From Escherichia phage Mangalyan, in the sequence record OR449013: 64,000 bases of DNA. One strand, given 5' to 3'. Each line of letters opens with the position of its first letter. The first letter of the stretch is position 1. This document shows, in pieces, positions 52,392-56,981 of this stretch. Made by a program: the position numbers and the translations under genes. Below the pieces are notes generated by a model, which saw nothing but the letters and a program-made list of their open reading frames with translations, had not been told where the DNA came from and did no database searches.

Positions 52392-52748
52392 TTAGTGACA
52401 ATCACCCCAATTACGACCACACAGGTATTCACCTGTGATCTGGAACGGGACGCCCATCATTTTAGAAGCTTGCCAGAAGCAATGCACCACCATTTCACCC
52501 ACAGGGCTCCAGATAAGTTCAAGCTTTCCGTCATCGTTCAGGATAGGATCGTACACCGTGTTTCCGTCTCTGTCAACCACTTCGTTTCCGTCCTCATCCT
52601 TGCGTGCCTTTTTGTACTTATGACCGTCGAACACATGAAGTTTGGCCTCCTGCTCTGCCTTAAATGCTTCCAGTTCTTCGATTGTGTCGAAGGTGTACAC
52701 AGTCTTATACTTCGGTGTGTCAGGGACCTGAAGTTGGTACTCATCCAT
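52392..52748 (-). CDS. hypothetical protein
   Basis: 118-aa ORF; no SD upstream of ATG; preceded by a 190-nt structured leader. Confidence 0.45.
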   Translation of the reverse strand: MDEYQLQVPDTPKYKTVYTFDTIEELEAFKAEQEAKLHVFDGHKYKKARKDEDGNEVVDRDGNTVYDPILNDDGKLELIWSPVGEMVVHCFWQASKMMGVPFQITGEYLCGRNWGDCH

Positions 52749-52940
52749 CTGTTCAGGTAGGTCGTTAAGCTACCCCGCACCATTACGTGCATAGCCATAC
52801 AGTTTCCTGTATGGATCGGACTACCTCACTGCCTTGGTAACAAGGCACCTCCCATTTCGACCGCACTTGCTGGCCTACTCTACTCGCTTCTTCACACCAA
52901 CCTGTGTTGGAGCTATGCTTTCGATAGTCTCTGAACGTTA

Positions 52941-53447
52941 CTACCAGGTGTAGTTTTTAGAGATATGTTTCCACTGTCTTCTTTGCTTTATGGCTCTGAC
53001 CGTCTCATAAGGATACCCAAGATCCCTAATCTCACATTGTCGTAGACCACTCTGCAACAGTTCGCAAATCTCTATTACCTCATCTTCTGTCAGCACAGCG
53101 TTGGCATTATACTCACCAACTGGCCTTACTCTGAGGTCATTATCATAGGCGTGCTTGATATTTCCACCAGGGGTGGTCCATTCCAGGTTCCAGTATGCAT
53201 TGTTGTACTTATTCCCATCCTTATGGTTCACCCATGTGAGCCTTTCAGGATCTGGGTTTGATACAAAGCATTCAGCAACCAGGTGGTGGACACCTTTTGT
53301 GCACTGCTTCCCCTCGATTAGCATGGTTACGCAAAGGTAACCTCTACCATTATCAAAATAAAACATTGTTGTATGATCACGTTTCGATAAAGGTATTGTT
53401 CCATCATCAAACACGGTATACCCGTGATAATCAGCTGTTCTAGCCAT
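52941..53447 (-). CDS. free-standing HNH homing endonuclease-like protein
   Basis: VHHLVAECFVSNPDPERLTWVNHKDGNKYNNAYWNLEW (HNH core), same family as the intron ORF; SD AAGGGG. Confidence 0.7.
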   Translation of the reverse strand: MARTADYHGYTVFDDGTIPLSKRDHTTMFYFDNGRGYLCVTMLIEGKQCTKGVHHLVAECFVSNPDPERLTWVNHKDGNKYNNAYWNLEWTTPGGNIKHAYDNDLRVRPVGEYNANAVLTEDEVIEICELLQSGLRQCEIRDLGYPYETVRAIKQRRQWKHISKNYTW

Positions 53448-53582
53448 TTTAACTACACCCCTTTAGTCTTCGCTGCGGATTAGCATATTGAGCTTTTACC
53501 ATACTCAGGTGTAAAAGTCAACTTAGCTTTCCCGTCAATTAAAGAGGTTATTCGACATAGATCACTCTATGAAGCCACAATG

Positions 53583-56500
53583 TTATTTATGGTAATAGAT
53601 AATACGACGAACACCTTCATCGTACCACCCACGCTTCACCATTTGATGGTGCATGAGTATCCCAACTAAGTCACACAACGATGCGCCGCCATTTTGTTGG
53701 TATGCATTAAGTAAAGAGTGTTTAGATCGGGTCCAGATGGCATGACCATCAAAAGAGTAGATAAACTTCTTACCCGTTGCTTCCCAGAATTTCTCCAGAT
53801 CTTCTTTACGCCCCTTAAGACCAGGGTTGGCATCCCAAAGTGCATCGATTACCCTTTGTCCCAACTCTGGAGAGATATCCAGCATGTCTGCAACTTTATC
53901 TTTTTGTGCCCCGTACATAACACCGTACGTGACAGGTTTACCGTCGTTACGGGAAATCTCCTTGCCTGCTACAGAAGAGTAAGCTTTGGCGTTATTACAG
54001 TTACCGCACACTGCCACTTTACCATTCCTTCTCACAATGATTGCTCCAGAAGGGACGGTAACGCAATAAACCAAAGAACCGCTCACCTCGACAGACTCTT
54101 TAGATAGTGTCAGCAACCCTGCTCTCTGTTTGCTACCAATCGTGATTCTGTGCTGTACGGAACGACCTTTTTTGTGAATCGCCACCGTATTATTCCGTAA
54201 ACCACACTGAGTAGCCAGCGCAGACACAACCTCTACAGATTTCTTCCTGCACTCGGCCTGAGAGTAGTAGGCAACTTTTCCACCTTCGGAAGATACCCAC
54301 CCGTCCCAGTTAGATAAAGAAGCTATAAACAGGTTTTTAGATTCTTTATCAAGGTCCATCAGGTTGTAGGTGAAATCCTTATTGCTGTCCAAAAACTCAA
54401 ATACCCAGGACGGAACGTGGAATTGGAACCTTCTCGCCAGTAAGCCCCCTTTTGTGGTTTTCCCGCTCTGCTCTACATAACTAAGGCTTAGAGCAGAAAA
54501 AGTATCTAAAAGCGTTGCAACTTTTCTGCCCTTCCCGACCTGAATCCTGCACACGATGCTGCCGTCCTTATTTGTATGCAAGTGCCCATCATCGTGAATA
54601 GCAATAAGCAAATTAACCTGGGCAGGAGATAAGGTTGTATTCCCATAAAACTCTGCCGCATGGATAAACCTTCTTCCTGAATTAGACCCTTTACCTGCTT
54701 TCAGGTCTTTTGCCAAATCTTCAAACAATTTATTGCTTCTGTGATCCACGGTCAGCATCCTGTGTTGATCTGTAACCATAAAATCCACACTGCTGTTGTG
54801 GAAATGATACATATCCCCACAATAACTACGCTTAACGTAATTTAATGGAGTAACAAGGTTCATCGACGAGGTGTTGTGATCGTACTGGAACACTTGTGTT
54901 CCCGGATCAAGATCTTCAAACCTCACCCACCCTTTCTCCGTGAGAATTTGTGTATCTCCTGAATAACAGTGTGCATCGCCATTACTTACAACATCATAAT
55001 ACAGACCGTTGTCAAACTCAAAGGCACCCCAGGCCCCGATGAGCTGCTCTAAGTTGGACCCGTCAATACCGATCTCAAAGTATCCTGGAGGAACACCCCA
55101 CAGACTACGCATCTCTTTACCCATAACCACTTTAGGAGATGGTTTAGGCATGTTTGCACAAATACTGTGTTTCTGTCGGGAAGTGTTTGTTAACCCAGAA
55201 CTTTTAGCAGGAAGCTTATGGTCAATCTTCAAACGTGGGTGATTAAGAAGACCAGTATCAACCTTATCCTCCTTGATTGGATCAAGGACCGATCTGCGGT
55301 TTCGCAATGATAACCACAAGACGATATCTTTAGCCATCTCTCCGTTCAATTTTTCAAGATTCGGGCATAGGTGTCCAAACGTATCTTTCAGTTGCGGAGA
55401 AGTAATAAGTGCCCTAGCTTTTCTACGTATTTTCCCGAATACTTCCTTTTTAATCCTTTCGGAGTTAGGAAAGCTTCGGAACTTGTGCACGGTTGTCTGG
55501 AACTTAGCATCAGTTTTGTTCCAGAAGTTGATAATTAGGTCACAATACTCTGACTCTAAAAGCTCGTCCATATATGCATACACTCGTGCATCAACATCTG
55601 CATCAGGTAGAGCTTTCTTCTTGCTGTCTTTAGTTACATCCTTAGTTCTCCACATTGTCGGAAGCCAACCAGCACTGATCAGGTATCGCTTAATGTCGTC
55701 CTGATTGCTGATTTTCATAGGTATCTTGCAGTCCGGCATTCGCTTCTGCTGTAGATCACTTATTGCCTGATCCATTAGCTCTTTAGGTAAAGGTTGTGGT
55801 GTGGAAGTGCCCTTAATATAGCCTCTCAAGAAATCAGCCATCTTATCAGGGTCTTTGCAGCCCATCTCTTCACACCATTTTATCCCCATCTTGCTGACAT
55901 CTCCTGTGGAGGTAAATGCTCGCTTAGGCGGGGCTTTGAACTCTAAAGCACTCATGTCCACAGGATAGCCAAGCTTATCTTTTAACCATTTCCAACCATT
56001 GTTGGAGATTGTCCCATCTTGGTTAAACGGCTTTTCAGGGAACTTGGGCCGCTGAGACATTGACAGCTCTTTTAAAGGAAGTTGAGGTTCAACACGATCA
56101 GCGATTTCTTTCATCCACGCATCGCAACGGTCACGTAAAGCAATAGCTCCATCTATGTCGAAGTATACACCCTGACGGGCCTGCAGCTCCATCAGGAAGT
56201 GCTGCAGCATGCCTCGACGTAGTGCGTTCTTCCAGGTGATCTTCTTGAACCCTTTCGGCTTCTCTTTGGCTGGATCGTACATAAAGTTCTGCATGTCAGA
56301 TTTGCCGTAGAATACACCTTTTGATTCCGCTACCAGCTCTTTCCAGAGCAGCTCCTGGATGATAACGTCCTCGAATACACGATCCACATACTTCCACAAC
56401 GGAAGATCGCGCCAGTCATCGATTTGAACTTTCTGGTTACCAAGGGCGTAGCCCCATGCCATAAGGCCGTGAGGACCAACAGGCTGCATTTTCTTAGTAA

Positions 56501-56981
56501 CCGGGTTGAATACAGAGTCCGGACAACCTTTTGGTAAAGGGCGATCAGGCCACAAGATTCGGCTCATCGCCAACGTATCAAACAGGTTAACCTGGTGGTC
56601 GTTGATAGTCCCCATACATTTAGGATCACGGAACATATCAAAATGAATACCGGATAATCTCTCCATCAGCATAAAGTCATAACTGTAGCAGTTATGGCAG
56701 TTCAAAGCTGTTGGTGACCAGTCGGAATTGCCTGTAAGCCAACCCTCCAACTCTGAAAAATCTGCTATGCGAACTTCAAAATCTTTATAAAGAGTTTTCT
56801 TTGCCAGAATAAAGTTCTTAGCCTTCTCTATATCCTCCTCGGAATAGTGTGTGCGGTCATTTAGAGGGAGGAACAGCATAAAACGGTTCTTATTCAGCTC
56901 TTTAAACAGGCCGCAGTGATAATAAAGATCTGGGTCTTCCAGCAAACCGGATGACTCAAAGTCGAACGACCACATGCTCAT
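53583..56981 (-). CDS. family A (T7-like) DNA polymerase precursor containing an intein
   Basis: SD AAGGAGA; N-terminal exonuclease FDFESSG...HCGL and HNCYSYD (T7 gp5-like); motif A GIDGSNLEQLIGAW; motif B-like RNDGKPVTYGVMYGAQ after the intein; 1132 aa including a 323-aa insertion. Confidence 0.75.
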   Translation of the reverse strand: MSMWSFDFESSGLLEDPDLYYHCGLFKELNKNRFMLFLPLNDRTHYSEEDIEKAKNFILAKKTLYKDFEVRIADFSELEGWLTGNSDWSPTALNCHNCYSYDFMLMERLSGIHFDMFRDPKCMGTINDHQVNLFDTLAMSRILWPDRPLPKGCPDSVFNPVTKKMQPVGPHGLMAWGYALGNQKVQIDDWRDLPLWKYVDRVFEDVIIQELLWKELVAESKGVFYGKSDMQNFMYDPAKEKPKGFKKITWKNALRRGMLQHFLMELQARQGVYFDIDGAIALRDRCDAWMKEIADRVEPQLPLKELSMSQRPKFPEKPFNQDGTISNNGWKWLKDKLGYPVDMSALEFKAPPKRAFTSTGDVSKMGIKWCEEMGCKDPDKMADFLRGYIKGTSTPQPLPKELMDQAISDLQQKRMPDCKIPMKISNQDDIKRYLISAGWLPTMWRTKDVTKDSKKKALPDADVDARVYAYMDELLESEYCDLIINFWNKTDAKFQTTVHKFRSFPNSERIKKEVFGKIRRKARALITSPQLKDTFGHLCPNLEKLNGEMAKDIVLWLSLRNRRSVLDPIKEDKVDTGLLNHPRLKIDHKLPAKSSGLTNTSRQKHSICANMPKPSPKVVMGKEMRSLWGVPPGYFEIGIDGSNLEQLIGAWGAFEFDNGLYYDVVSNGDAHCYSGDTQILTEKGWVRFEDLDPGTQVFQYDHNTSSMNLVTPLNYVKRSYCGDMYHFHNSSVDFMVTDQHRMLTVDHRSNKLFEDLAKDLKAGKGSNSGRRFIHAAEFYGNTTLSPAQVNLLIAIHDDGHLHTNKDGSIVCRIQVGKGRKVATLLDTFSALSLSYVEQSGKTTKGGLLARRFQFHVPSWVFEFLDSNKDFTYNLMDLDKESKNLFIASLSNWDGWVSSEGGKVAYYSQAECRKKSVEVVSALATQCGLRNNTVAIHKKGRSVQHRITIGSKQRAGLLTLSKESVEVSGSLVYCVTVPSGAIIVRRNGKVAVCGNCNNAKAYSSVAGKEISRNDGKPVTYGVMYGAQKDKVADMLDISPELGQRVIDALWDANPGLKGRKEDLEKFWEATGKKFIYSFDGHAIWTRSKHSLLNAYQQNGGASLCDLVGILMHHQMVKRGWYDEGVRRIIYYHK
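54000..54968 (-). mobile_element. intein (323 aa) with LAGLIDADG-like endonuclease motifs
   Basis: starts CYSGDTQILTEKGWVRFEDL (block A), ends ...GKVAVCGN followed by +1 Cys; internal LLIAIHDDG and LFIASLSNWDG; inserted between polymerase GDAH and motif B. Confidence 0.65.

Follow-up and report, generated by a model that had tools for sequence, protein, structure and literature searches.

Does the 323-residue segment that interrupts the DNA polymerase of Escherichia phage Mangalyan (sequence record OR449013) splice itself out of the protein, and does it still move among related phages? The stretch of DNA analyzed here (the window) comprises 64,000 nucleotides of this genome. An earlier note, made from the letters alone, had described a 1132-aa ORF with a 323-aa insert, and both the ORF and its translation were recovered at 53583..56981 on the minus strand. 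In our reading the 969 nt of the insert are very probably a mobile intein, composed of a Hint domain and a two-motif LAGLIDADG domain within a T7-like polymerase, that is subject to two-step splicing and homing.

A polymerase gene interrupted twice

On the basis of sequence comparison, the interrupted gene is assigned as the T7-like family A DNA polymerase of an rV5-like (Vequintavirus) phage of E. coli. A phmmer search against the PDB matched T7 gp5 at E 1e-15 over residues 468-658, a region that covers D475, H506, motif B, and HDE, and the family A motifs A, B, and C were found in order. Once the intein and a group I intron are removed, the alignment to T7 gp5 468-658 continues unbroken over both junctions. 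The Pfam model DNA_pol_A remained below threshold on the ORF because the gene is interrupted. The 1132-aa ORF represents only part of the gene, as its stop falls two codons inside the intron, and the listed ORF extends to 53583 by reading the intron codons AAA TAA. The second exon aligned with T7 HDEIQV and is joined directly to exon 1 in phage NHEP1 and in the IMG/VR contig L021. The computed precursor has a mass of 142.5 kDa and the mature polymerase has 925 aa and 106.6 kDa. The spliced enzyme of about 91 kDa expected previously had overlooked the intron, while the excised intein of about 36 kDa agrees with the computed mass (Table 1).

The intron junctions read ...UACCAU|AAAUAACAUUGUGG and ...ACAGAUG|GAUGAG, with the last exon base U in the P1 U·G pair and G as the last intron base, as at group I junctions. 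In the intron-less alleles of NHEP1 and L021, YYHDEYQ is uninterrupted. The window copy scored 28.5 bits against Rfam RF00028 (gathering threshold 50), a low value since a 507-nt ORF sits in the intron loop, and a search of the whole window with Rfam at gathering threshold found nothing. The intron was detected in the window with an E-value threshold and secured through the ORF-less copy of phage JEP1, which reached 73.7 bits (E 6e-19) and is about 91% identical to that of the window over 328 shared nt. The ORF inside the loop also gave a weak match to Pfam HNH_3, and this part of the intron is absent from JEP1.

Table 1. Features of the polymerase locus, in positions of the window
Feature	Position	Strand	Description
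Exon 1, T7-like family A DNA polymerase	53589..56981	−	aa 1-1131, end ...IIYYH; assigned by T7 gp5 alignment
N-extein	54969..56981	−	aa 1-671; exonuclease domain, motif A (GIDGSNLE), end NGDAH; His aligns with T7 His506
Intein	54000..54968	−	323 aa, 35.9 kDa, 969 nt; ORF aa 672 to 994; exactly 969 nt missing from rV5_ev146
Hint splicing domain, N-terminal part	54669..54968	−	intein residues ~1-100, blocks A and B
LAGLIDADG homing-endonuclease domain	54114..54668	−	intein residues ~101-285; two alpha-beta-beta-alpha-beta-beta halves
First LAGLIDADG motif, LLIAIHDDG	54585..54611	−	intein 120-128; Asp127 is the conserved acidic residue; D127/G128 nearly invariant in family
Second LAGLIDADG motif, LFIASLSNWDG	54300..54332	−	intein 213-223; Asp222 invariant in family alignment
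Hint domain, C-terminal part	54000..54113	−	intein residues 286-323, blocks F and G
C-extein part of exon 1	53589..53999	−	aa 995-1131; motif B (RNDGKPVTYGVMYG), ends at motif C His
Co-converted donor-derived tract	53952..53999	−	first 16 C-extein codons, including Cys+1 codon TGT at 53997..53999; linked to intein
Group I intron	52746..53588	−	843 nt; splits motif C between His and Asp (T7 H653|D654); exactly 843 nt missing from NHEP1
HNH homing-endonuclease ORF inside intron	52941..53447	−	168 aa, apparently in P6 loop; PHROG phrog_59 'HNH endonuclease', E 1.4e-36
Polymerase exon 2	52392..52745	−	117 aa, DEYQLQV...GDCH and stop; PHROG phrog_8888 'DNA polymerase', positions 186-295 of 295, E 4.5e-58

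The intein, its lineage, and its possible splicing routes

The insert starts with CYSGDTQILTEKGWV at aa 672 and ends with VAVCGN at aa 994, after which Cys995 provides the +1 residue; it is flanked by GDAH upstream and by CNNAKAYSSVAGKEISRNDGKPVTYGVMYG downstream. Its key residues are Cys1, the Thr-x-x-His of block B in VTDQH (T66 and H69, then R70 and M71), VYC302VTVP306 in block F, and C321-G322-N323 in block G, so that the intein closes on Asn323 followed by Cys+1. Of the features common among class 1 inteins, it lacks the penultimate His (which does not define an intein), the His at block F:13, and the Asp at block F:4. In the family alignment C1, H69, D222, C302, G322, and N323 are invariant, D127, G128, and K149 are nearly so, and the block B Thr/Ser is conserved. 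Structure prediction (AF2 model) gave a Hint plus LAGLIDADG fold for the 323 residues. The middle domain contains the alpha-beta-beta-alpha-beta-beta-alpha fold twice, and D127 and D222, each followed by Gly, close helices 115-127 and 208-221. Intein-less alleles, family alignment, and fold together establish that the insert is a real intein with a LAGLIDADG endonuclease domain; they uphold the original call with its exact boundaries and Cys+1, and both motifs, alignment, and fold sustain the LAGLIDADG nature of the middle domain.

Searches with Pfam intein and LAGLIDADG profiles, which the earlier note had recommended as a check, looked negative on this protein. Hint_2 was the sole Pfam intein-type match (23.7 bits, cut-off 28.4), NCBIfam TIGR01445 scored 14.4 bits (cut-off 24.5), and no Pfam LAGLIDADG model matched at E<0.1. 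These sub-threshold intein scores reflect a limit of profile sensitivity and no missing feature, and with curated profiles below threshold, relatives and structure prediction were needed to establish the intein. Among 11 relatives, three matched Intein_splicing, three LAGLIDADG_3 (best E 3.5e-4), and one LAGLIDADG_1, and the relative P0023 has a precomputed match to PF14528.

A word-indexed homologue search with the intein alone returned nothing; only a profile built from phage tblastn matches found homologues. In all, 7698 representative proteins match at E≤1e-3. Homologues over the full length, at 25–40% identity, lie inside unrelated phage proteins; those at 25-30% identity are inserted in ribonucleotide reductase (RNR) subunits, NAMPT, PhoH, primase-helicase, thymidylate synthase, and RtcB, and all of them have Cys at the start and GN at the end, followed by C, S, or T. 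Across 164 full-length copies of the lineage, Cys1 is present in all, while Cys at F:4 and the penultimate Gly each occur in 160, and 148 copies have Thr, Ser, or Cys at G:5. The intein ends with N in 151 copies, with Q in 12, and with D in one, and the +1 position is occupied by C (90 copies), S (56), or T (18). Among the top representative matches, 12 proteins (this allele included) carry a lineage intein directly after D-x-H, and in at least five of the others the surroundings resemble a family A polymerase, with GD-x-H ahead of the intein or a motif B-like ...Y[GA]x[IL]YG behind it. Gly instead of His at the penultimate position had been pointed out before as unusual: Gly322 is indeed there, but it is no peculiarity, as nearly all copies of this phage lineage have it. 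Relatives put to the test splice well, and in two of them replacement of this Gly by His impairs splicing (PMC7891396, PMC5050341).

Maturation of the polymerase would take two steps. The group I intron would be removed from the mRNA, joining ...YYH to DEYQ... in a message for a 1248-aa precursor, and the intein would then excise itself, leaving the mature polymerase and a free intein. Cys1 (and/or Cys302), Thr66/His69, Asn323, and Cys+1 would perform the acyl shifts and the Asn cyclisation, and Arg70 probably stands in for the absent penultimate His. The conserved residues, the behavior of tested relatives, and the isolation of six intein-bearing phages as viable lead us to infer protein splicing.

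The inteins PI-SceI, PI-PfuI, PI-PkoII, and TliVMA share 13-17% identity with the window intein, and with chains of 366-537 residues these archaeal and yeast LAGLIDADG inteins make it look compact. They have a penultimate His and an Asp at F:4, and PI-SceI carries an extra DNA-recognition region. The Bethlehem RDF intein of a mycobacteriophage (gp51/gp52 phosphoesterase) belongs to the same lineage as that of the window and aligns with it end to end (E 1e-11). Both start with Cys1, have V-W/Y-C in block F, end in Thr/Cys-Gly-Asn before a nucleophilic +1 residue, measure about 320 aa, and contain a middle domain of LAGLIDADG type. However, they are only 21% identical and reside in different host proteins of different phage groups, and the Bethlehem junction is TGN|S (+1 Ser, G:5 Thr) where the window has Cys at both positions. 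For the Bethlehem intein, Kelley et al. 2016 (PMC5050341) showed complete splicing, slower splicing of the G316H mutant, and toxicity of the endonuclease in E. coli.

Among solved Hint domains the nearest, in sequence as well as in structure, is that of AceL NrdHF (PDB 6zgq), a naturally split and proven class 3 intein (Hoffmann et al. 2020, PMC7891396). It resembles the window intein in the Arg-Met after the block B His, whose Met is at B:12, the Cys-x3-Pro of block F, and the penultimate Gly (PMC7891396). It differs in having Ala1 instead of Cys1, in being split by a free-standing GIY-YIG gene instead of carrying a LAGLIDADG domain, and in its host protein, an RNR. This likeness raises the question of class. 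[quoted passage not shown] On the other hand, class 3 inteins are defined by having no need for an N-terminal nucleophile (PMC5222942), which is put into practice as the rule of no Cys at the N-end (PMC7891396). Membership in class 3 was rejected on account of the Cys1 found in every copy and of the absent Trp B:12. In place of the class 3 triplet Trp B:12, Cys F:4, Thr G:5 the window has Met71, Cys302, and Cys321, so that Cys F:4 alone matches.

A class 3-like or relay route, with Cys302 forming the branched thioester and either attacking the N-junction or taking the acyl group from Cys1, is possible but rather unlikely. The near-constant Cys F:4 and the hydroxyl or thiol residue at G:5 in most copies favor it, as does the class 3 nature of AceL NrdHF. 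The constancy of Cys1 argues instead that this residue is needed, Trp B:12 is absent, and the tested Bethlehem relative with Cys1 is treated as class 1 (PMC5050341). More specifically, because the lineage combines Cys1, Cys F:4, and Thr/Ser/Cys at G:5, and because the closest relative of known structure, a proven class 3 intein, is set apart mainly by its Ala1, the lineage could splice via a two-thioester relay (Cys1 → Cys302 → Cys+1) or be a living intermediate between classes 1 and 3, a proposal that we regard as doubtful. Attempts to recreate such a link by engineering failed (PMC7664689). If the proposal were true, four cysteines (1, 302, 321, +1) would cluster at the active site, and polymerase maturation could be redox-sensitive.

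Insertion site, flanking tract, and probable mobility

According to the T7 gp5 alignment, the intein is inserted between the equivalents of His506 and Thr507, just upstream of motif B, and not in the palm as had been assumed. In the structure of the T7 polymerase, we take His506 to belong to the fingers and to contact dNTP at its binding site. Phages rV5_ev146, C12, and phiWec189 lack exactly 54000..54968 and show the junction GDAH|QNNAEAY, with the empty allele reading ...AACGGGGACGCACAC|CAAAACAATGCTGAGGCA... across the site. This comparison with intein-free homologous polymerases, colinear on both sides of the missing 969 nt, confirmed the insertion site. In a phage collection with about 115 Vequintavirus records, the junction was empty in 109 and carried the intein in six, which amounts to about 5% of sequenced relatives. 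The element is a new example of a well-known type of selfish element that most sister phages lack. A literature search, which also covered penultimate-glycine inteins, found no description of an intein in a Vequintavirus or rV5 polymerase.

The tract next to the intein differs from all three intein-less alleles examined at 20 of its 48 nt, which affects 6 synonymous and 6 non-synonymous codons, against a background divergence of 1.4-7% around it. Five of the six other intein-bearing GenBank alleles have the identical tract; that of VB-EcoM-WM, the sixth, departs from the window at 5 of the 48 nt and has kept the intein-bearing variant at most diagnostic sites. No intein-less record with a donor-type flank, as expected of a precise loss or of the donor itself, was found in the phage collection. 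The nearest lead to a donor is L021, whose polymerase is 75% and whose intein is 76% identical and whose flank reads CNNAKAYS. Since the empty site has Gln at +1, the intein can invade only if it brings its own Cys+1 codon. In a mixed infection, the free intein would cleave the polymerase allele that lacks it, and repair off the intein-bearing genome would copy the intein together with a short flank that includes this obligatory codon.

The intein differs from its copies in JEP1, NHEP1, 241Ecol014PP, YP-6, and EPFV3 by 0.2-0.7%, in polymerase backbones 2.5-7% away from the window; overall its identity is at least 98.7% across backbones that diverge by up to 7%. The nearest backbone to that of the window belongs to the intein-less C12 (1.4% away), and the distribution of the intein on the polymerase tree is scattered. 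Comparison with the divergent WM allele gave dN/dS values of 0.08 (whole intein) and 0.079 (endonuclease domain, as low as in the splicing domain), and a dS of 0.54 in the intein versus 0.17-0.22 in the exteins. Because the catalytic Asp pair is conserved, dN/dS is low, and the intein is near-identical across diverged backbones, the endonuclease is probably active now or was so recently. DNA cutting itself is presumed; what the data show is its population-genetic footprint. Carriage of about 5% fits a recent invasion, and weak or lost homing as well.

An intein that splices but whose endonuclease is no longer active, moved among Vequintaviruses as a passenger only by homologous recombination in co-infection, is an unlikely alternative on this evidence. 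Ordinary recombination without an endonuclease could also yield near-identity of the intein across backbones, and the short flank common to all intein-bearing alleles fits a single ancient entry followed by recombination. The small number of carriers and the failure of every Pfam LAGLIDADG model to recognize the domain point the same way. Nevertheless, both catalytic Asp residues and Lys149 are conserved, and a dead domain should drift or be deleted, which is at odds with its low dN/dS. The near-identity of the intein in scattered, diverged backbones and the toxicity of a relative's endonuclease in E. coli (PMC5050341) also speak for the mobile intein with an active endonuclease. A normal accessory domain that does not splice, or an artefact of assembly or annotation, can be dismissed as an account of the segment: the GenBank labels of the 1132-aa intein-bearing product ('DNA polymerase' or 'hypothetical protein' only) would allow it, but exactly this stretch is missing from 109 sister genomes, it breaks up the dNTP-binding region, it folds as Hint plus LAGLIDADG, the same element lies within many unrelated enzymes, and seven independent assemblies (the window and six GenBank phages), in addition to L021, contain it.

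A mosaic gene and a possible system for intein homing

Certrevirus phage CB7, a related phage discussed alongside the Vequintavirinae, has a polymerase split by HNH-bearing group I introns, with splicing shown by RT-PCR, and LAGLIDADG inteins in replication and nucleotide-metabolism genes (PMC7344957). The inteins of CB7 are in its helicase, NrdA, and NrdB and none is in the polymerase, whereas the window has intein and intron in the same polymerase gene. What has been deposited for rV5-like phages as a plain polymerase or hypothetical protein is in reality a three-part mosaic of intein, group I intron, and HNH gene with a 925-aa product. Polymerase phylogenies, protein clustering, and the curation of phage-therapy genomes should allow for this.

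To our knowledge, E. coli itself carries no inteins. On this host, natural sister phages exist that either carry or lack the intein, and likewise the intron; with them, homing of the intein, co-conversion, and fitness cost could conveniently be measured in a lytic phage. The Cys1 and Cys F:4 active site of the lineage bears on the origin of class 3 inteins. Finally, the locus presents a clear case of required co-conversion and shows how inteins can colonize sites without a pre-existing nucleophile.

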